A DNA stretch of 64,000 nt from Eledone cirrhosa (lineage: Eukaryota). Made by a program: the position numbers and the translations under genes. The notes beneath the pieces were generated by a model, which saw nothing but the letters and a program-made list of their open reading frames with translations, did not search any database and was not told the DNA's origin. This document shows, piece by piece, positions 3,762 through 64,000 of the stretch (the first letter of the stretch is position 1; the number at the start of each line of letters is the position of its first letter). The stretch lies in the NCBI GenBank assembly GCA_964016885.1, contig OZ024758.1, forward strand, positions 8,122,001 to 8,186,000, written 5' to 3'.

Positions 3762-6700
3762 GTAAACTTCGATTATTTTTAACAGAATTCTTTTTATACA
3801 CATTATTGTTTATTTATATTAGTAGGTATTATTTGTATGCAACTATTAGGGGCCTCTTGTGTCTCACACTGTTTCTCTAATTTTCAAATGATTTTGAAAA
3901 TAACCAAAATTAATTTAAATATAGATATACCTAGAACAAACACAAAGTAATCACTGAATGTCCCTAAATGTAAATAATACACTCCCAAAACAAAACAACC
4001 GGTGGATAAGACCACTGAATACCAAGCTTGTAACTAATTACACTCATTGAAACAAAGCTAATTACACACTAAATATCTTTACTCGATCCAAGATATCATC
4101 TATAATTCCTACCTCAAACATTATCTATATTTCTTGATTAAAATTATATAAACCCAACAACCAGCCTGCTCTAAATACCTGTATGGGGGGAGACGGGCTT
4201 CCTCAAACTGCAGCTGTCATATTACACAGTTTCTGTATAATAATAAACAATATTTACTATTATCTGCAGTGACCCCAACATAATAATCTACACCAACAGC
4301 TAAAAATATATAACTTTCTCCATTATTAACCCTTTTGATACAAAACTGCCCCTTGTTCTATGATACAAAGTTGTTTATGTTAAAGCATGCTGTTGATATT
4401 CTATATAAGAACCATTGTTAAATTATGCTCCACACATAATTTAATAATAACAAGAAAATTAGATATATTACTAAATATTTCAAAATTCTTGATTATTCTC
4501 AAAATGATTTAAAAATCATAGCCAGTGTCCATCATTAGAAATATGGTAACGAAAGTTCAGAAATAAAATGATGATGGAAAGGTTTGGCATTAAGAAGGAC
4601 ATCCAGCCGTATAAAACCAACCAGAAACTCTCCTATATGAGCGAGACACGGTCACCCGACCCAACTTGCCTCTAAATGGGGCAAACCCGCCTAACCCATG
4701 CTAGCGTGGAAGATGGATGTTAATCGATGATGATGGTAAATGCTTTAGAACAACAATCATAGAACTTGGATTGGTTTGAGGCTTTTTAGCATCAAAAGGG
4801 TTAAGTAGTTACTTGATAATAATTAAATGGCATCAATGCTACTACAACAGCAGCAGAAATATCTTCAGTTTAATTCTTAACGTCCTGTTCCACATGAAAC
4901 CACATTAGCAAGACATTCTTGAAAAGCACAAAATAGCATTATGATTGCATCACATCCCTGGCTGGAAAAGGTTGAGGACTGCTGTTATAAAGGACATGTT
5001 CTGAAATATGTACCAAAATTGTGTCAAATCCATAATTTTTCAAACTTCTTCTTCTTCTTGTTCCAGGAACTGAGTCAACTTCCCGTTGACAATGAAATGT
5101 CAGCAACAGTACTGTTTATCCTGACAGAAGTATTCCCATCATTCTATAAATGGAGATATTACAATGCCACTAGAAGGGAAGCTATAGGTAATCATAACTT
5201 AGCTGAACATTTTGCTTATTATTTATTTAGATAACTTGTTCTTCTGATATTAGAATATTTCAGCAATAATTTCAAATTAAGTTTACCACATTCTCTGAAG
5301 TTGTGTAGAATAATATCAGTCTTTGAAAGAAACATTGGATTGGTAGAAGGTAAGATGCCATGCTTTGCAACATAGAGTTACGGCCTTTTATGATCTGAGT
5401 TCAAATTCCACCGAGATTAACTTTTGCCTTTCACCCTTACAGGGTCGATAGAATAAAGTACCAAATCTTTGGTATTCTGCTATAAATTTTTATATCACCA
5501 TTGTTGTATTATAAATAGATAATTTCTGATGTTTATTCTGTTAGGTCACAAATGCCTGGAGATTTTCCACAATATTCTGGATGTTATGGCTAAACCTAAA
5601 ATCGATCAAACTAAAAAATTGTAAGATAATCTTATTTATTTCATTGTAAACTTCTCGTGTGTGCGTGCGTGTGTGTGTGTCCTTATTATTTCGTAAAGTT
5701 TTTGTGTGTTTATCTGAGTGTGTACATGTGTGTGTGTCCTCATATTTACATTCATTTTGTTGTAAAGTTTTTGTGTGTGTTTATGTGTGTGTGTGTGTTT
5801 GTGTGTATGCATGTTTGTGCATGCACATGTGTGTGTGTGTGTGTTTGTGCATGCACATATGTGTGTGTGCATGTCCTCATATTTACATTTATTTTGTAAA
5901 GTTCTCGTGTGTGTGTGTGTGTTCTCATATTTTTTGTCACAATCTTACTTATCACTCCTAACCAGTAACCAGATTATTGAATTATATCAATAAATTGATT
6001 ACAAGAAAGTGTCAGACATTGGACGTGCTCTTTCTGTTTTCAGACCAAATTTACAAGAAATGTGTGTACATAATTTACTATATACCGAAGCCGGTCAGTC
6101 TCTGTTGAAAGTCATATCCATAGGTCTTGATGCTTTTAATGACAGCTCTTCCGAACAAAAATGGTAATCTACTTTCCCAAATTTATAATTTATTTTTCAT
6201 ATATAAGTCTAAAAAAATTACTACATATACTCAAATATAAACCAACCCCACTATTTTATGTCTGAGAAGTGGGCAAAAACCCAAACTTTATTTACATGGA
6301 ATTTGAAGTTGGTGAATACCATCGAAATATTAACCCTGAATATAATCGACCCTCCCACTTCCATTGATTCTTAGGTCACATATTCTCTGGCTTATATTTG
6401 AATATATTTGATTAACATTTCTTTCTCATTTTTTTTACCATTTGCTTTCTTCATATTTCTTTTTGTAATTTTCTTAATTCTTAATGATTTCGTAGAAAAT
6501 ATCTAAACGTGGGTTTATTTTTTTACTAATGAGCAAATTGTTGTGAAAATTTGGTGTATTAAAATAAAGATACTGATCTGGTGCCACAACAAAAGCACCT
6601 AGTCCACACTGTAAGGTGGTCATGCTGGTGACAACAACAAAAGCACCCAGTAAAGCCTGTAAGGTGGTTTTGTTGTCTGAATATAAAGTTTTATTCTATT

Positions 6701-9700
6701 TTCATAACTTTATAAATGTTTATAAAGTTATTTACATATTGAACATTTGTAAAGATTGTAAATAAAATCGAATACTTTTTGATAAATGCTGTATGTTTTG
6801 TTTCCAGGTCTACTAACACAAAAGGTAATGACTTGATAGACTTAATACAGATGTCTTTCTCAGTACTAAATAGATTGTTATTATTAAAAGCACCTGATCT
6901 ACCTGTGTCCCCAGTAGAGAGAGCATTGTCATTACCTGCTGCTAGTCAACAAGAGCAACATATAGTGCTCACTGTGGCACAATATATATTTCACCAACAT
7001 TCACCTAAACTACCAACAATGGCTATCCTCCTACTCAAACGACTTGCTGTGGTAAGTTTCACCATAATTTCAAAACTATTTTGACTAAAGTCTGTTTTTT
7101 TCTCTTTTCAATGTGAGATACGAGGGCTGGTTTAAAATTCCTAGGCTGACCAAGATACTCTCATGAAATAACCAGATGAGGTTTATTTTTCAACATAATC
7201 CCTGGAAAGAAACAATGCAGTTATTAAGAAGAGCTGAAATTAATGGATGCAAGATTTCACAACTCTAGCATCACTCTTTGATAATCAGCCTATGAACTTT
7301 TCAACTCACCCTCATATACATCTAAATATATAATATAATACCCTAGAATTAATTTTTTTAACAATCCACATCATCGAGGGTACTTTTAAATTTTTCCCAC
7401 TGACCAACCACTGCCCAGTCCCTAAACACCCTGGAAATCAATGGAGCTTGCCAGGAAGTTCATATTCTGACTAATTTTTTTGCCTTCAGTTTTAGGCTTG
7501 TCATGTAACATCAGAGGAGGTGTTAAATTTTTTTTTAAAGTTTCATTAGTACCCTCGATGGTGTCGCAGACTGTAAATAAATGCCATATAGTGTGAGATA
7601 CTAGAATATTGACTTCAGAGTCAGAAGTTGAAACCTTACTACATTATAATGTGTCTGCTATGCAGTATAGAGTTACGGCCCTTTATGGTATGAGTTCAAA
7701 TCCTGCCGAGGTTAACTTTGCCTTTCATCCTTACTAGGAAGAACATATGGGTGTAAAATATTATCTCAAAAAGAACTCCATAAAGAGGATGACATTTGTT
7801 GAGGGGTCCCCCGGAGATAACCCCTGTTTTAGCAGGGAAAATAACCTTAAAATGTTTGGTGTTGGTGCCTAGATTTAAGAAAAATCTTTTTTTAAAATAA
7901 TAAAAGAGGTATCCATTCTTTTCTTTAAGATATCAGAATAGAAATTACTACTAAAAGGTTTACTTTTTAATGGTCTAACTTGTAAAACACTAATAAATGC
8001 CATAAAGGTCTGTCTCAAAGCCAGAGATTAATCAGGCCAGTGCTTATCCCAGTTTCTGTGCTGTGAAGTGACTGAAAGTACAAGAATCACCCCTGGACGG
8101 GACACAAGTCCTTCACAGGGTTAAGCCCCCAGCTATTACTACTGGTACTCATTTTTAGCTGAGTATACTGGAGCAACATGGAATGAAGTGTTTTGCTCAA
8201 GAACACAACACGCAACCCAGTCCAGGATTCGAACCCATGTCATCATTTCATCATCATCATCATCATTTTACGTCCGCTTTTCCCTGCTTGCAAGGGTGGG
8301 ACGTCAATATGATCATAAGTCAAACACCCTTACCACTAGACTACACAGTTCCTCCATAAATAAATGCCATATCTAACCAATATTATGAGAGCAGAGAAAG
8401 CTTGTTACTAATCACCATCACTAACAAATAATTATCTGCTGCTCTCAGAGTTAGGGTTCATTTCCAGTGGTAAATGCTATAACTTCTTTGTGTATAATTA
8501 AATATACATTCCTCCTATGAGTGGGGGTGAGGGTGGGAAGTCAAATCAATTAGGATTTTCATGCTAATGCGATTTCTGATTAATTGGAATAATTTGCTAA
8601 AATTATAAGTGGCATTTTGTATCTAAGTAGCTACATTTTTTTTATGTTTGAAATATTAATTCTAATTGACATGCTATTAAATTTCATAACAGGTCTCCCC
8701 AATGTCTATCCTGGCTATTCTGGGAAATGATGCAGAACCTATCAGAAACAAAATGTTATCTCGCCTTGCTGCTTTAACTGAGGTTCGGGGTCTTTTTAGT
8801 ATTTTTTATGTGAATATGTATGTGTGTGTGTATAAATATATATATATATATAACAAAGGAATTCTGGTAAGGGACCAGATGGACCAATAGAAGCCATTTC
8901 TATATTAAATATATATTTGTTTAACCCTTTAGCATTCAAACCGGCTATATCTGGCCAGAATTCTCTCACCTCTTTCTGTTCAAAGTGGCTGTAACTGACT
9001 GATCATACTGATGTTAAGGTATTGTTCTCAAAATAAATAATATCAAAATCTCATAGATTCGATATTATGTGAGATAATTATGCGAGGTAAAGCCTTTACC
9101 ATGAAATTACAATAGTAAATATAGAATAATGTAAATGCTAAAGGGTTGAATCCATTTTCTTCTTTATAAAATCATTTACCGTCCATTTTTCTGTATTGGC
9201 ATGGGTTGGACGGTGGTCACAGACTAAGTTAATACTTAATTGGAATTACCGTTCTCCCAAACGGTCTGGAAACCATGTCTCACTCACATACTTTCCAGTT
9301 TTGGCTTGGTTTCTATAGATCTTCATATTTATAACATCTAACATAGGCTGACCAAGATACTCTCATGGAATGACCAAATGAGGTTTATTTTTCAACATAG
9401 TCCCTGGAAAGAAACAATGTAGTTATTAATAAGAAGAGTTGAAATTATTGCATGCAAGATTTCACAGCTCTAGCATCACTCCTTCATAGTCAGCCTATGA
9501 ACTTTCCAGCCAATCCTCATAAAGCATACAATGGCCTTTGTTTGCCATCATCATCATCATCGTTTAACATCTATCTTCCACGCTAGCATGGGTTAGACAG
9601 GAATTGTCCCACTTGAAACAAGATTGATCGGGTGACCGTGTCTCGCTCGTATAAGACTGTTTATATTCTGCATAAACCACACAACTCACATCAGTTCTGT

Positions 9701-12700
9701 ACAGATGAGTGGTGTGTCATATTGTTATAATATATATATATACATACTAATATATTTATGGGAAACAAATCATAATTTTAGGACTTGCAACTAAAAGTGG
9801 CCATTCTTGAGCTTCTGTCAGTATGTGTTGTTACTCAGCCTGGACTTATTGAACTCTTCCTTAACCTGAAGCTTGAAAAACCTGATGATCAAGGAAAAAA
9901 GGTATGTTTTTTTCTTTTCCTTTTACTTTGGATAACACAAATAAATATTGGATATGAGACACCCTATAAAAACAGTCATAGACCCTGCCTTTGGTTCTCT
10001 GACTAAGCCAGCAAAATACTTCTAAAAGTATGCTTTTATGGAAGCTCTAACTTAATAGTAGTATGTAACAAAGAAAGTATATATTAAGAAGTGTGCTAGC
10101 AGCTGAAGTGTATGATAAAGTTGTATCTGTATAAATACAGTGAGTGTGTAACCGAGACTGCAACAATGTGTATATAAATATGCACATTTATAATATATAG
10201 ACATGTTAACATAACAGAAAATTTTTTTTAAATGTCTGTAAATTGAAATGATAAACACCTTTAATTGATTTTCGGATCTAATTGGACCCTCATCATAAGG
10301 CGTGTATATACCCATTTATTCTTAGTATTATTCTAAAATGGACATATTAATTTGCATATAATTAGCGCTTGTGTTGATAATTAATTAAGATATATATATA
10401 ATTAAGATATATATAAGAAGTGTACTAGCAGCTGAAATGTATGATAAAGTTATATATATAAGTCTAAAGTCTGTCTTAAGCCAGAAGGCTCATTTGGCTG
10501 GTGCTTATCCCCGGTTTCATGATGTGAAGACTCCCCCTGGACAGGACGCCAGTCAGTTTTAGCTGAGTACTCATTTTCAGCTGAGTATACTAGAGCAACG
10601 TGAAATGAAGTGTTTTGCTCAAGAACACAACACGCAACCCAGGAATCGAACCCACGACATTATGATCGTAAGTCCAACACCCTTACCACTAGGCCACGTG
10701 CCTCCACTATATATATATATATATACAGTGAATGTTTGGAAAGTAGCTGGCATCCATCTTCTGCCATTCAGCGTGTTTATATGCCCCATTATTAGACTAT
10801 ATTTAGTCAAATGTTACAGTGAAGCTTCTATTTCTATTTCAGTTTTTATTCTTTTATATTTGTGTATGATAGGGGAGAAGGACGGCTGATGATATTATTG
10901 GGATTTCCATTTTACTGAGGTAGTCATTATATTTGGGATGAGTTTGAAGATGGCAAAGATTAACACCATCGTTAGAGTGCTTCATTGCCTTTATATTTGT
11001 TCTGGCTCTGTGTTTAAATCCTACAGATGTCAGCTTTGTCTTTCATTCTTTCGGGGTCGATAAATAAAAGGATTGGTGGATTATTAAAGTGTCTGCAGAA
11101 TACTTTACAATATCTCTTCTGGCTTTGTGTATTATGAGTTCCACCCCAGTAGGAGTTGTAACCAGCTCTTTTACAGCTATTTCAGTGTTGGAGATTCCTA
11201 CAATTTTACGAAATATTTACACACTCATTGCTCCAAATCCTTTCATCTTCATCATCGTTGTTTAACATCCACTTTCCACACTAGCATGGGTTCATATCAA
11301 GTGATTTTAATATTTCAAATCTGTTTTCAGGAGCTGACATTGGGAAGTTCCAGTTGCTTGAATTCTGTGATGAACTTAATTGTTGTCGAGAAGCAGGTAA
11401 AGTATTTCTGGATATTAGACTCTTATTTTGTTGTTATTGTTGTTGTTGTTGTAAGTAGGTTTACAAAACATAAAATGAAGTGTTTTGCTCAAGAACACAA
11501 CACACAACCCAGTCCAGGAATTGAACCTATGATATTATGATCATAAGTCCAACACCCCTAACCAAAGGCCACATGCCTCCACAACAATTTATACTGCTGC
11601 CTATGTTTTCAGTAGTTCAGTAACCTTGAATGTAGGCTTCATTGGGTGGTTAAGTTGACTTTGCAATTATTAGGCCCCAGGCTTAGTCCCACTGGATCTT
11701 GGGGTCAACCCAACCCAACCTTGTGGGTGAAACCTTGTGGGTTGATGAAAACTATGTGAATGCCTGTCATATGGTTTGTACCTGTATTTCAAAGTTTTGT
11801 CACATGTGATAATGATTTGGCTTGAGAACTACCTGTGGAATATTCAACCATTTATACTTTAATACAAGGTAGACTATGCCTATAATTCAAAGGTCCAGGT
11901 TTGTCACATACAGGCTGAGTCATAAGTAAGCAGACAGTATCATTTAGATTAGGGGTGTGCAACATATTCCATTGGTGGGCCACTTTTGAACATTGGAACA
12001 ACTATTAGGGTCATTAATATTTATTAAGCACTATTCCAAAGATTCAACACAGAACTGGGGAAATTATAACACACATAACCCTATCAGTGAAGCCCTTTAG
12101 TATAGGCCAACTGGGTAATTATAACACACACAACCCTATCAGTGAAGCCCTTTAATAGAGGCCAACTGGGTAATTATAACACACATAACCCTATCAGGGA
12201 AGCCCTTTAGTACAGGTCAACTAACAGAAAATTGTATTACGGTTACGAAAAAAATTCTAAATAAGCCTGCAAGATAAAAATTTAAAACGGTCATTGTGGG
12301 CCACTCTGACTGATCTGGTGGGCCGGATTGTGGCCCACGGGCCGCCTGTTGCACACCCCTGGTTTAGAATATGTTGGACTGCCCAGTTACTTATATCTCA
12401 CCTTGTGTCGTGATGATTCAGCTTGGGAATTGTAGGGTACACGTGTCTGTGGAATATTTATTCAAACACATACGCAGTAATTGATGAGTTGGATGAACAG
12501 TTGATCAAACAACTGAATGGTCATTGTCGAAAGCAAAGGAAACTATCATCATCATCATCACCACCACCACCACCACCATCATCATCATCATCTAATATTT
12601 ATTGTGGAAAGTATTGTGTTTCATGTTATATTATCTGGGGTTTTAATATTTTATCACAGAAAACTTACCAGTGCCCTCCAAATCTTCTGTGTGCCTGTAT

Positions 12701-12844
12701 TGAGTTCCTTCATGCTCTTTGGGCTGGTATGAGAGAAACAGCAATGAGTGTTCTCAGAACCAAGTAAGTCATATGTTATATTAAAACAAATCATTATTCT
12801 AAATAGATTGTATGTACATACTTATATATATATATATGTGTGTG

Positions 12845-12875
<31 letters not shown>

Positions 12876-12876
12876 G

Positions 12877-12907
<31 letters not shown>

Positions 12908-12989
12908 GTATATATATGTGTATACAATACATTAACAGAGAAAGCATTAAGCTATACTCTGACTGGCTACCATCTCACTCAACAAACAA

Positions 12990-13027
<38 letters not shown>

Positions 13028-16000
13028 CAAAATTAAATTAAGGATGTCATGTCTGAGAAAGATGCGCCATATAACCTCTGTAGAATAAGTTCAAATATTC
13101 TTTGGGATAGATCTGAGCATTTATAAGCATTCAATTAAAAATCGATTCACATATACGACATAACATCGGGGGACTCATTTCTACAGCTGAGTAAACTGGA
13201 GCAACGTAAAATGTGTCGTCTTGCTGGAAAACAAAATGCACCACCCGATCCGAGAATCAAACTCACAACCTCATGATTGCAAGCCTAATGCTCTAACCAC
13301 TAAGCCATGTGCCTTCCCTCATTATGTTGCCAGTATTGCCACTGAAAAGGAACACACACACACACACACACACCATATGATTTGAAAATCATATAGGAAA
13401 TACGTTTTATTAGAAATATGTTAACAGAAAGGTTAATATAATTGTTTCTACTTTTGGCACAAGGCCAGCAATTACCCAGTACATTACTGGTACTTTATTT
13501 TATCGAGCCTGTAAGGATGAAAGGCAAAGTTAACCTCGATGGTTTAATATAATATTGCTAAATAGCTTCCAGATGTGTAAATAAACCTATCATGTGTCGT
13601 AAAGTTCTTGGGAAATATTTCCTTTATGAAAGTTAACTAAATTTTTGTTTTCCTTAATGAAACAGAGAGAGTTTCTGGGTTAGTATCTGTGCTCCCATGA
13701 AGGGGGATATTGAAGATGACCATGAGGACAAAGAGGAGGTAAGTTTCTAATTTACAGATTTATTGAATCATCAATATCGTCACCACCACTGTCATCACTA
13801 CCATCACCCCCACCACCAGCTTCATCATTACGGCCACCACCATCAGATTCGCCCCCACCACCATCATTACCATCACCCCCACCACCATCATTACCACCAA
13901 CATCATCACCATCATCATCTAACATCTGTTTTCACATAGTCAAAACTGAAACAGGGCTACTGACATCTTAGATTGACTGGGGTCGTCTTACATACAGTCC
14001 CATAGTTTTCTGACTACATCTTATCAAGACACCAGTACTAGGGAGTTTTGTATGTCCTCCTGACCCTTTCTTTGCCAAAATATTAGTTTTCACTTACTTT
14101 CCATATTAAAAGTACAATTTCATCCATTGAAACTTCTCAATATATCAAACTATTTTCTACTTACCTCTATGTCACTTATACATTAAAATGGGAATGTTAT
14201 TTTCAATACAATCTACTGAAGTGGAGGCTTCCAGAATTCTTGGTCCTGAACCACATCCCAGTCACTGCTATCAGAGCAGAGTTGGCTGTCACAGGTGTGA
14301 ACCCTATGAGGTGGAGTGGCTGTTACAGTATGTCTCCCTCACCATCCTCTGGCCTCCCACAGGTGTCTCCCTCACCATCCTCTGGCCTCCCACAGGTGTG
14401 AGCCCTGCAATGTGGTTGTCTGCTCCAGTGTATCTCCCTCACTCCTCTGGGACAATATATTCTCCATCCTGTCAGCTGGGACCACGAGGCGGAGGGTAAG
14501 TTAGTTGGTGGTGGAGGATATTTGTGTAGTCATCATACATATACACACATACCAAACAGATATAATGTAAATCTTGTTAAATAACACTGTGAATCTACTG
14601 AAGTGTCTTGTAAATAATTCACTGAAATATTATTCCAACATGTCTACAACTACCAAATACTACCCCACCATGTCTACAGCCAACAAATAATACCCCACCA
14701 TGTCTACAGCCAACAAATAATACCCCACCATGTCTACACCCAACAAATAATACCCCACCATGTCTACAGCCAACTACAGCCAACAAATACTACCCCACCA
14801 TGTCTACAGCCAACAAATAATACCCCACCATGTCTACAGCCAACAAATAATACCCCACCATGTCTACACCCAACAAATAATACCCCACCATGTCTACAGC
14901 CAACTACAGCCAACAAATAATACCCCACCATGTCTACACCCAACAAATAATACCCCACCATGTCTACAGCCAACTACAGCCAACAAATACTACCCCACCA
15001 TGTCTACAGCCAACAAATACTACCCCACCATGTCTACAGCCAACAAATAATACCCCACCATGTCTACAGCCAACAAATAATACCCCACCATGTCTACAGC
15101 CATCTACAACCAACAAAAGTATATCAAATTTAACAGCCAGTTTCTTATGACTTACAGATGCAGTTGTATAGGTTTGCTGACATCAAAACTGTCGCCTATG
15201 TCTTCCTAATCCTGGCACAAGAGAGTTATACAGTTCCAAGGTAAGCCATTACATAGCTTGTTTAAAACTTGTTTTTTATTGGTTTGGTTTGATATACAGG
15301 GTTATGTCTAGGGCCTTTGTAGGGCCTACACTTATTGTTTTCATCTGATTTACAGGGCTAAGCTTACAGCCATTGCAAGCTGGTCACTTATTGGTTTGGT
15401 CAGTATGGAATGAGGAGGGTTAATGGTATTAGAGGCTGACCAGTCACTTATTGGTGAGGTCATTATGGAATGAGGAGGGTTAATAGTATTAGAGGCTGAC
15501 CGGTCACTTATTGGTTTGGTCAGTATGGAATGAGGAGGGTTAATGGTATTAGAGGCTGACCAGTCACTTATTGGTGAGGTCATTATGGAATGAGGAGGGT
15601 TAATAGTATTAGAGGCTGACCGGTCACTTATTGGTGAGGTCATTATGGAATGAGGAGGGTTAATAGTATTAGAGGCTGACCGGTCACTTATTGGTGAGGT
15701 CATTATGGAATGAGGAGGGTTAATAGTATTAGAGGCTGACCAGTCACTTATTGGTTTGGTCAGTATGGAATGAGGAGGGTTAATAGTATTAGAGGCTGAC
15801 CGGTCACTTATTGGTGAGGTCATTATGGAATGAGGAGGGTTAATGGTGGAGGAGGAGGAGTTCTTAAATGAGGTTTCCATAACTTTTGAAATATTAAAAA
15901 CAAAGTCCATTTCTTTTTCTTTCTCAAATCATTTTCTCTGCAAAATGCAGTGCTTGTCTGAAAAGTTCATAGGCTGACTAAGATACTCTCATGGAATGAC

Positions 16001-27973: not shown

Positions 27974-30900
27974 ACGTTTAACGTCCGTGTTCCACGCTTG
28001 CATGGGTTTGGACGGGGGTAGTCCCACTTGAGGCAAGAGTGACTGTCTTGCTCGCATAGGACTGTCTGGCAGGTTTTCTACAGCTGGATGCCCTTCCTAA
28101 CACCAACCACATTTACAGTGTGGGTCTGGGAGGATTTTACCGTGTTGCCTACACGGCCACATTACAGCGTGGACTGTGTGTTTTTTATCATATATATATA
28201 TATATTCTCAGTGCTGAAAAGTCGAAAATTTTGCTCCATACATTACTAGTAATACTATTTCATCTTAAATATATTATTAAACAGCCTACACAGCTTCATA
28301 TCGCCACCTATAATGCCTGTCTTCTGCTATCTGTTAGCATTAGTATTACTATTTCATCTTAAATAAATGTCACCACTAAGAGAACTCTCACATTTATTTT
28401 ATTTCAGTCTTTAGAATTTGCTCGAATCAACCTAACAGAACCTGCTTTAAAGGAAGCCATGGCTACTTGTGGCTTCATATACCAAATGTCATTCTATTCA
28501 AGAGAGTGGAAGTTTCATTTACCAAAAGTACTCAGTAAACTTATGGTAAATATTATTTTGTAAACCTTTATTTTCAGTTAAAACGGAAATGTGCTGACAT
28601 GTTAAAAGTTAAATTCTGTGCCAACCTCGTTAGACTTGAGTTTATCCCAGTTTAACTGATGTTAAGCAACTGAGAGTACACCAGACTTGCTCACTGCTGG
28701 TATTCACTTCATTACACCTAAGTGGATTTAATATGAAATGAAGTGTCTTGCTCAAAGACACAACATACCACCCAATCAGGGAACTGAAACCATAACTTTA
28801 TGCTCCTTAACCACTAGGCCAGGTGCTATCATATAAAGGCATATCTCTACATGTAGCATCATATAACAAAAGTACTCACTAAACTTGACAAAGATTGTCC
28901 TTTACACCAGGCATGTCAAACTGAGGGTCCCTCGAGGGCCTCATGGGTCACATATGTGTTGTTTGAGGGCCACATAGGTCACATGTGTTGTCTGAGGGCC
29001 ACATGGGTCACATATGTGTTGTCTGAGGGCCACATGGCTCACATATGTGTTGTCTGAGGGCCACATAGGTCACATATGTGTTGTCTGAGGGCCACATAGG
29101 TCACATATGTGTTGTCTGAGGGCCACATGGCTCACATATGTGTTTTCTGAGGGTCACATGGGTCACATAGGTCACATATGTGTTGTCTGAGGGTCACATG
29201 TGTTGTCTGAGGGCCACATAGGTCACGTGTTGTCTGAGAGCGACATGGGTCACATGTGTTGTCTGAGGGCCACATGGCTCACATATGTGTTGTTTGAGGG
29301 CCACATGGGTCACATATGTGTTGTCTGAGGGCCACACACGACAACTAATTGCGCACATTACAACTATTTTTTTTCATTTTATATTACAAAGATAAAACAA
29401 GCTTGCGCTATAAAAATCTTTGTGTGGGCCACAGGTGTGCTTGTAAAGGACTGCAGGCCACATGTTTGACATGCCTGCTTTAAACCTTTATTTCCAACTA
29501 AAAGGTACAGGCAGGCATGGTTATGTGGTTAATAAGTTCATTCCATAACCACCTGGCTTCAGGCTCTATCCCACTAGTCTTTGGCTGATCAATGCAGGGA
29601 GTTGTAAGGGCGCCGTATTGACATACAGCATTTCTAGGGTATTTTCAAAACTGGGAGAGTCCATCTCTTCTCCAGGTCTGAATACAGCAGATTTCTTCCA
29701 GAGAAAGATAGAGAGAATGAAAGAATGGAAGTGAGAAAGAGATATAGAGGAAGAATTGACCCCAGTACTACACTGGTACTTTTTTTGTTGACCTTGAATG
29801 GATAAAAGACAAAGTTGACTTTGGTAGGATTTGAACTCGGAGAACAGAGAGTCAAAATAATAATAATAATAATGAAATTATTGTGTACAGTGCTCAGGTG
29901 CACTACAACTCATCAAAGGTGCATGTATAGTACATAGAATAATGTACAAATGTCAGGAAAATAAACAGTGTATGAGTCATGATATAATAACAATAACGAA
30001 ATATTGTGCACAGTGCCCAGGTGCACCACAACTCATCAAAAAAGTGCATGTACAGTACATAGGGCAATGCACAAACATCAGTAAAATGAACAGTGCACGA
30101 GTCATGATACACACGTGTGCATGTGTATGGAAGGGGTACATCAGGTGTAGTTTTGGCGTATTTTGGGAAGCATGAGTGTCTTAAAGGATGCAGTGTCTCG
30201 GCAGCTAACAATTGACGCAGGCAGTTTGTTCCATGCTTCAGCAACTCTGAGCGTGAAAAAATGTCTGCGAAAGTCATGGGAGCTGTGCTGTTTTCTTATC
30301 TTGTAGGCATGTCCACGTGTGTTAGACACATGGAGATCAAAGAGGCGCTCAGGGTTGCAGTTGGCGAGATGGTTAAAAACTTTGTGGGTATTCACCAAGT
30401 CCATTGCCAGACGTCGGAGCTTCAATGAATCCATGCCCAGGGAAGCAAGGCGTTCAGAGTATGGTAGGTGTCTGATGGAGGGTATGCGCTTGGTTGCACG
30501 TCTCTGAACAGTTTCCAGGAGGTCAATGTTCCGAGCAAGATAGGGGTTCCAGACTGATGATGCGAATTCCAAGTGTGGTCGCACCATAGCTGTATACAGT
30601 TTTAAATAGATGGCTGGAGAGCGGCTAACAAAGGTCTTGCTGAGTGATGCCAAGACACCCTCGGCCTTCTTGACAATCTTAGAGACATGCTTTGTCCAAC
30701 GCAAATCGTTGCTGACAGTAATGCCCAGGTCACGTTCACAAGAATGAACCACAAAGCATTCTATCTGACATTCTATCTGACATTCTTAATACACATCAAA
30801 CTAAAACTATTTGTTTGCATATTGTGAAAATTCAAGTTAAAAAATTCTGTTGTTGCTAGCTTAGGAAACCCTTTTTTTCCAAATAAAATGGCTAAAAAAA

Positions 30901-40544: not shown

Positions 40545-59607
<19,063 letters not shown>

Positions 59608-62585: not shown

Positions 62586-63548
62586 ATATACATATATATA
62601 CCATATATAACAGAAGGTGTGGTAAGATACCAGGTGGACGATAACCCATCAGAGTACTCAATACTTAGGATAGTAAAGTGGGTAATAGGGAAAGGGTCAG
62701 GACCCTGACAGCTGAGCTCCAGCCGTTTCGACAGCTAGATTCGAACTAACCAGGTTTTTTTAGTTCGGATCTTGCTGTGGAAACGGCAGAGAAGAAGAAT
62801 AATAAGACGGCACAGAAGAGAAAGAGAGATAAGAAGATTATTATTGTGGTGAGTGACCTAGGTGTAATAAATCTTCAATGACAACAAGATGTCTTAATAG
62901 ACGGCGGTTAAGTACCAGGTTGATGTAAAAGATAAAATAAAATAAACTAATAAAGTAGACTTTTACTTGAGTGCTCCAATTCCCATATAGTGAAAACATT
63001 GATATATATATATATATATATATATATAATGGCAAGCTGTGTGGTTGCAATTAAGTATAATGAAAAATAAAAGTTACGGGCAAAAGAGAGGAATATCCAT
63101 CGTCAGTTGTCTGCTAGGAATCATAGGTATTTCTTCGCGTTAGAGACAAGATACCTCAGCCTAGGGCGAACAATAACTAAAATAAGTTATTGGGATAAAA
63201 GAAGGGGGGGGGGGGGGCATGTAGACAGACAGACACGAAGGGTGAAGCAACGTAAAGAGAGGAAAAATAGGAAAAATATCAAGTCAACAACTCATTTCGA
63301 ACGTAAGAACTGGCGAATTTTGACGAGAGAGAAAAAAGACACGTCTTAGCTGTAGCAGTGTTAGTGAGAGAAGAGGCTGCGTACAGTGGCGGACGAGGGA
63401 GGGAGTGAGCTAGTGGAGAGAGGATGACTAGCAGAGAGGGAGTGAGTGAAAGTAAGAGGAAGCGAGAAAGAGATAGTTATAGTGGCAGGGTAGCCGAGAG
63501 AAGGTGAGCGAAAGTAAGAGGGAGAAGGAGAGAGAAGGGGGAGAGAGA

Positions 63549-64000
63549 GCATAGAGAAGTTCCCATTGGCACCCAGTCTTAAACTCCTCTGTTATGACTT
63601 GGAGGACTATAATGAACAAGAGTGGGCTGAGGACCGAACCCTGATGTATCTGGAATTCCTCACTAAACTCCATTCCTATTCTCACTTTACTGACAGCACC
63701 CCTGTACATAGCTTGCACTGTCCTCACAAGCCATTCCTCTACACCTAGTTTCCTTAGGGACCACCAGATGACAGATCGGGATACCCTATCAAAAGCCTTC
63801 TCTAGGTCAACAAAAGCTAAGTATACTGGCTTATTCTTCTCTAAGAACCTCTCTTGTAGTTGCCTCACTAAGAAGAGAGCATCTGTTGTACTTTAACCAA
63901 ACTGCATCTCATCTAATTTGACCCTTTCTCTAATCAGTTGCGCTAATATTCTCTCTGCCACTTTCATAACCTGATCCATCAGTTTTATGCCCCTATAATT
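63549..64000 (-). mobile_element. RTE-type LINE reverse transcriptase fragment
   Basis: AFVDLEKAFDRV...HQGSVLSPLLF...WELLYA. Confidence 0.9.

Follow-up and report, generated by a model that had tools for sequence, protein, structure and literature searches.

Among the known mobile sequences that carry hammerhead ribozymes in animals, the non-LTR retrozymes are described as non-coding units of 150-450 nt, with lengths of 350-390 nt in mussel and of 330 and 350 nt in axolotl (PMC7229834; 10.64898/2026.07.22.740005). In animal type I hammerheads, the form whose helix III is an 8-nt palindrome is reported to act as a dimer (PMC4209133, PMC7229834). A tail, inversion, and a preference for microsatellites have been described for endonuclease-bearing Penelope-like elements (PLEs) (PMC8557442, PMC11167929), and the copying of a ribozyme-made circle by a PLE is proposed, and not demonstrated, in the passages cited here.

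How does a hammerhead motif in the genome of Eledone cirrhosa compare with these systems? The motif lies in a stretch of 64,000 nucleotides (contig OZ024758.1, positions 8,122,001 to 8,186,000), which we refer to as the window. We read it, with a probability of roughly 80%, as part of a decayed, probably inactive copy of a dispersed family of 353-nt type I hammerhead units, likely copied in trans by a PLE.

Anatomy of the window copy

The following features, listed by position in the window, make up the copy and its surroundings.

10079..10735, minus strand: whole insertion, ~1.15 units of the 353-nt family, probably interrupted by a SINE near its 5' end
10085..10131, minus strand: 3' copy of a direct repeat, i.e., the family's optional tail of ~30 nt and its outer 3' end, with a short TA run next to it (10084-10079)
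10255..10303, minus strand: type I hammerhead motif, with predicted cleavage between 10262 and 10261, a C3-to-A change at 10296, and CpG decay at 10266 in the helix III palindrome
10304..10311, minus strand: point at which 44 nt have been deleted between two short AT-rich repeats, taking with them the 5' strand of outer helix I
10350..10357, minus strand: octamer-like motif ATGCAAAT, a candidate promoter element, present in the family majority and intact in 31 of the 85 copies that cover the site
10396..10413, minus strand: local AT-rich duplication of 18 nt where the units join, not shared by the family majority (approximate boundaries)
10414..10460, minus strand: 5' partial repeat, which corresponds to the final part (unit positions ~312-353) of the preceding unit
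10461..10707, minus strand: very high-copy repeat with a tRNA-like head and TA runs at both sides, a separate insertion and presumably a SINE
10712..10735, minus strand: on the far side of the SINE, a piece that is probably the stranded 5' tip of the upstream partial repeat, identical at 20 of 24 positions to the copy's own 3' repeat

A preliminary description of this DNA had claimed a type I fold on the minus strand with a 7-bp stem I, a 5-bp stem II, GAAA, a UUA cleavage triplet, and an AUGAUGA core, and this layout is confirmed at 10303-10255. Read on the minus strand, helix I pairs 10303-10297 with 10261-10255 (7 bp, one G-U), the core box AUGAUGA occupies 10296-10290, helix II joins 10289-10285 to 10278-10274 (5 bp, loop CAAUUA), GAAA is at 10273-10270, and helix III consists of 2 bp and a tetraloop, with UUA as the triplet. 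A hammerhead descriptor allowing one core change, composed only after the motif had been seen, matched the window once, at this motif, and matched none of 40 locally shuffled windows. An Rfam scan of 5000-16000 returned no hammerhead match at E<=5, and the folding z-scores of the motif were modest (-1.68 and -2.42); the case for a hammerhead therefore rests on the family. Helices I and II form in the MFE fold, in which the core is mis-paired. Exact matches to a 26-nt hammerhead pattern numbered zero in metagenome contigs. No ORF of at least 120 aa overlaps the unit, which bears out the claimed absence of a credible ORF. On the 3' side of the hammerhead, a T-rich run followed by CAG is a candidate splice acceptor.

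The two direct repeats, announced earlier as ~45 bp long and 329 bp apart, were recovered as 47 nt with 89% identity at a spacing of 329 (repeat family D16). The accompanying estimate of a ~330-nt unit has to be revised: the family unit is 353 nt, from which the window copy has lost 44 nt and to which it has added the 18-nt duplication. Upstream, the SINE-like repeat probably splits the partial repeat, as judged by the letters beyond it: none of 3946 random window pieces, and none of 69 pieces preceding TA tracts, scored as high as the match at 10712..10735. The tRNA match within the SINE-like repeat is weak (10699-10631, E 2.9), and its contig depth in DNA runs is up to ~890,000, compared with ~6 in the flanks; these runs reflect repeat depth and do not bear independently on the A3 change. 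The repeat shares the strand of the hammerhead unit and adjoins it on the upstream side, and related pieces occur at 8145-8365, 11437-11593, and 13173-13318. Elsewhere in the window, three tandem 55-nt repeats with 93% identity occupy 12058-12222, and the open frames at 30141-30785, 47594-48112, and 63428-63892 are presumably LINE C-terminal or RT fragments, going by their appearance to the eye.

The window copy carries three lesions: C3A with G8 unchanged, the 44-nt deletion, and the CpG decay in the helix III palindrome. Two consecutive complete hammerheads, the minimum described for an active retrozyme locus, are absent here, and the copy would not release a circle or a monomer, because its single ribozyme is damaged. 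We consider it probably dead.

A dispersed family of 353-nt units

Is the unit repeated in the genome, or is it single-copy, which would have spoken against the preliminary description? It is multi-copy: a genome search with the unit gave 65 matches from the best 40 scored of 2,476 candidates. The exact hammerhead pattern gave 45 matches and the exact tail pattern 87, against 0 for the reversed-pattern controls, and the hammerhead and tail lists overlap at 2 loci, one of which is the window. From this overlap ~1,300-2,000 loci would be expected, and we place the family at ~1,000-2,500 copies in the 3.0-Gb genome, an estimate good to an order of magnitude only. We analyzed 103 loci, from which 21 duplicates of loci already in the set had been removed. 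Copies are dispersed across many chromosomes and are not arrayed. Literature searches yielded no description of the 353-nt family; Repbase, Dfam, or the supplements of papers may list it.

The majority unit is 353 nt long with 33% GC, and the longest stop-free stretch in the family multimer is 66 aa. The family thus has what is expected of a retrozyme in this respect, namely a non-coding unit of 150-450 nt with a GC content below 50% and one type I hammerhead. A highly self-paired monomer, likewise expected of retrozymes, is predicted from the majority sequence: the circular form reaches -89.3 kcal/mol, compared with -62.5 +/- 5.3 kcal/mol in 60 shuffles (z -5.1). The antisense circle falls equally far below its own shuffles (z -5.0); the fold score does not choose a strand. 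Divergence from the majority unit has a median of 9.6% at non-CpG sites (range 3.9-16.6%; 62 passes from the first 57 loci) and is 8.0% in the window copy, and the family is, by this measure, an old one, ~10% diverged.

Upstream of the hammerhead, the unit contains an octamer (positions 39-46), a palindromic TATA-like hairpin (83-96), and an inverted CCAAT (122-126), which may possibly form an internal promoter. An octamer is cited as an snRNA-type promoter for newt satellite 2 (PMC2220036), and by analogy the same role for the octamer of this unit is a lead only.

Does the family have a hammerhead core? The consensus could have lacked one, which would have refuted the preliminary description, and it does not: the family majority reads CUGAUGA...GAAA...UA. 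At the C3 position, 107 hammerhead rows contain C 86 times, T 13 times, a gap 5 times, G twice, and A once, in the window copy; the C3-G8 pair of a type I core thus belongs to the family and is lacking from the window copy. The full core is kept in 33 of the 107 rows. Helix III has 2 bp and the 8-nt palindrome, and helix I continues past a bulge into a second stem. The helix pairs are mostly preserved across copies, helix I being open-ended and containing one compensatory pair. This is pair 4 of helix I (U-A 30, C-G 30, U-G 12, C-A 7), for which the Fisher p of 4e-6 overstates the number of events, the rows being related copies. The covariation points to two source variants that would have been selected for structure, not to many events, and the compensatory change implies that the ribozyme was under selection during the family's mobile phase. 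Across the genomic copies themselves, the core decays like the rest of the unit (328/358 kept, compared with 9732/10806). Two tandem hammerheads occur in 12 of the 103 loci, and at one of these (L154) both cores are intact; the tandem character expected of retrozymes is weak. L066 is an example of a single copy with an intact core.

Insertion ends

Where do the copies begin and end? Their 5' starts are spread over the whole unit, and for 83 of 134 arms the 3' end falls into one of two 20-nt bins ~30 nt apart, a clustering that is in part selection, given that sets of loci picked by the unit search or by the tail favor tail-bearing copies. At loci found by the hammerhead pattern only, 14 of 35 arms end in the inner zone, 4 in the outer, and 17 elsewhere, i.e., 18 in the two zones (p 0.001). 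A microsatellite begins within 20 nt past the end in 56 of the 88 arms that end in the two zones, compared with 15 of the 46 other arms and with a window background of 255/3199 bins (8%). Arms stand head-to-head in 34 of the 103 loci, and in 9 of these 34 an inner end is paired with an outer one. The ends sit in TA tracts, where target-site duplications, which in retrozymes exceed 4 bp when present, cannot be read. In four loci (L005, L107, L137, and L139), one unrelated repeat adjoins the family's 3' end across the TA tract; it is probably another TA-targeting element sharing the same targets.

The features of PLE insertions thus recur in the family: 5' truncation, partial tandems, and inverted adjacent arms, as well as an optional tail of 30-40 bp and a bias toward microsatellite targets. 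Taken together, and as far as sequence can tell, the ends are the footprint of PLEs.

Insertions are shorter than two units. An arm of one unit or more is present at 52 of the 103 loci, the longest being 692 nt, and the end of the unit runs into its own start at 56 of the 103. Fully 101 of the 134 arms cross the cleavage site, and only one has its 5' start within 3 nt of it.

Proposed mechanism and template

How might such copies arise? We propose copying in trans, in which a PLE that targets TA tracts would have supplied the RT and the GIY-YIG endonuclease for the family. Multimeric transcripts would be cut by dimeric hammerheads through the 8-nt helix III palindrome, and the cut monomers would probably be closed by ligation, as circles of 353 nt. 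Downstream of the cleavage site, the unit has two internal AU-rich sites, at ~145 and ~175 nt; the PLE enzyme, having nicked a (TA)n tract, would begin reverse transcription at either of them. Copying of one unit or slightly more would then leave a short direct repeat such as the one at the window locus, where the copy would have undergone neutral decay and, probably, a SINE insertion.

What was the template? Because most arms cross the cleavage site, a single one starts near it, and half of the loci hold one unit or more, the template would be a circle or an uncleaved multimer and not a cut linear monomer. The same PLE enzyme could have copied a linear, uncleaved multimeric transcript of a tandem source locus, in which case the ribozyme would be incidental to insertion. 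Arms that cross the cleavage site fit a linear and a circular template alike, and variants common to both passes of one arm are only modestly above the family expectation (75 vs. 40.5), as a linear multimer would allow. Such a template calls for a tandem source, however, and no array of more than two units was found among the 103 loci; selection on the ribozyme during mobility, implied by the compensatory change in helix I, likewise tells against an incidental ribozyme. We therefore regard the linear multimer as rather unlikely and favor the circle modestly, on these two grounds. Read in this way, the copies would be a fossil record of a Neptune-type Penelope enzyme that copied a ribozyme-made 353-nt RNA circle from two fixed, target-like AU starts, distant from the cleavage site, and past the ligation point—a tentative reading, to which we give somewhat less than even odds. 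An excess of A-to-G changes, as from an edited RNA template, was not found in the family (3.9% vs. 3.5% T-to-C, p 0.16).

Search for a linked Penelope-like element

Could the unit be the end of a PLE rather than a passenger of one? PLEs with GIY-YIG are abundant in this genome (the best 150 were scored of 10,595 candidates). The family profile had no match in 30 GIY-YIG loci and gave low-score, AT-rich matches only in 20 longer PLE loci. No linked PLE ORF was found in 20 family loci extended to ~10 kb, and none is joined in sense to the unit at any of the 103 loci. PLE protein queries hit three short, separate fragments near family loci (L121, L169/L175, and L190), none of them joined to the unit; at L121 and L169, the GIY-YIG and RT fragments are split from it by unrelated or CA-repeat sequence. 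Among 133 family-masked upstream flanks, 6 share junction-adjacent sequence, in 3 pairs. The flanking RT plus GIY-YIG ORF that defines the pLTR of an autonomous PLE was therefore not found beside the family.

Two same-strand pairs of copies ~4.4 kb apart (L179 and L176) were considered as flanking pLTRs, and no PLE ORF lies between the copies. The first of them was rejected for a further reason: L179 (G000:C1:364086000-364095999) is a tandem duplication that includes a family copy, and its repeats lie 4.4 kb apart and are 99% identical across 2 kb.

The genome does contain a PLE with comparable ends. At L070 (G000:C1:145868000-145877000, minus strand), a 938-aa open frame encodes RT and GIY-YIG with a CxxxxCxxC linker as in Neptune, and the element has two pLTRs ~5 kb apart and its own hammerhead with a U3-A8 core. 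Its relatives have two fixed ends ~65 nt apart, each followed by (TA)n, the same two-end rule as in the 353-nt family. The likeness of the L070 junction to the family unit was discarded as a sign of homology, since 170 of 500 shuffles reach the alignment score. Other, unrelated type I hammerhead families occur near family and PLE loci (L025:~2890, L029:385 and 846, L030, L071:8827, and L077:7485).

These results bear on the choice left by the preliminary description, which had offered either a solo pLTR or a retrozyme-like monomer and had looked to tandem copies and to linkage with RT/GIY-YIG ORFs for a decision. Under the former, the unit would be the solo partial-tandem pLTR of an autonomous PLE whose coding copies escaped our sample of 103 of perhaps 1,000-2,500 loci. 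The tail, the inverted arms, and the TA bias are of PLE type, as this would predict, and solo ends often stand next to few coding copies (PMC4209133). However, where a pLTR would show ORF sequence, 56 of the 103 loci cross from the end of the unit into its own start; the few shared upstream flanks and the three unjoined protein fragments likewise tell against a coding parent, and we consider a solo pLTR improbable. Of the two earlier proposals, the retrozyme-type unit is thus the one that fits, and the solo pLTR is the one that does not. Long copies run from unit end to unit start and never into an RT/GIY-YIG ORF, and for this reason the sequences support a non-autonomous, retrozyme-type unit that would work like a PLE passenger.

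LINE-driven movement of a SINE-like repeat, or the spread of a satellite at the DNA level, with the hammerhead as a passenger, is very improbable. The window is rich in LINE RT fragments and in SINEs, also within simple repeats, but the family has neither a poly(A) or simple-repeat tail of its own nor a tRNA head, its copies are spread across many chromosomes and not in arrays, and the features that it does show, namely two alternative 3' ends, circular permutation, and head-to-head arms, are those of PLEs (PMC8557442). It is scarcely credible, finally, that the window copy itself is a ribozyme with A3 as a core variant, either still active or domesticated by the host, even though its helices I and II are fully paired and a U3-A8 variant core is known in PLEs (PMC4209133) and at L070, because A3 is unique among the 107 rows, the unchanged G8 means that the 3-8 pair is broken and not swapped, a single C3G or G8C change is reported to abolish cleavage of a PLE hammerhead (PMC11167929), one strand of outer helix I has been lost, and the core is no better conserved than the rest.

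Comparison with known systems

The window copy itself is ordinary debris. Its family adds another to the animal retrozymes, a previously known kind of element, and has ends that are clearly of PLE type; it thereby supports the published view of animal retrozymes as riders on PLEs. The two mapped 3' ends and a co-resident PLE with a long ORF (L070) provide a concrete substrate and a concrete enzyme for the question of small-circle copying; if the circle-copying reading is true, the mapped sites make in vitro testing direct with an RT/GIY-YIG element of the same genome. The family is old and decayed, and younger families of the same genome would be better test objects.

How close is the family to each of the described systems? 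At the level of genomic sequence, it resembles metazoan non-LTR retrozymes in size, low GC content, a type I hammerhead whose helix III has 2 bp and a palindromic loop, a predicted circle that is self-paired, and coexistence with PLEs. It differs from them in that it consists almost only of dispersed monomers and partial dimers, is old, and yielded no long arrays. In Xenopus, 24 of 57 retrozyme families are reported to match known transposable elements, nearly all of them PLEs (10.64898/2026.07.22.740005), whereas a homologous pLTR was not found for the 353-nt family.

With the pLTRs of Neptune-type PLEs, as described in the cited parts of PMC4209133 and PMC8557442, the family shares a 5'-truncated partial tandem, an inverted 5'-adjacent arm, an optional tail of ~30 nt, a bias toward microsatellite targets, and a type I hammerhead near the 3' end. 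It differs from these in having no RT/GIY-YIG ORF and in a unit that closes on itself. The hammerheads differ as well: that of the family has helices of canonical size and a long, bulged helix I, whereas the PLE pLTR hammerhead is a minimal form. With the Anolis Poseidon element PAc, as reported in PMC11167929, the family has in common two internal RT start sites that define a tail, AT-rich targets, and read-through of the ribozyme site. PAc is a coding element, however, with start sites that lack homology to its target, whereas both ends of the family fall at AU-rich sites similar to the (TA)n target, to which they could possibly anneal.
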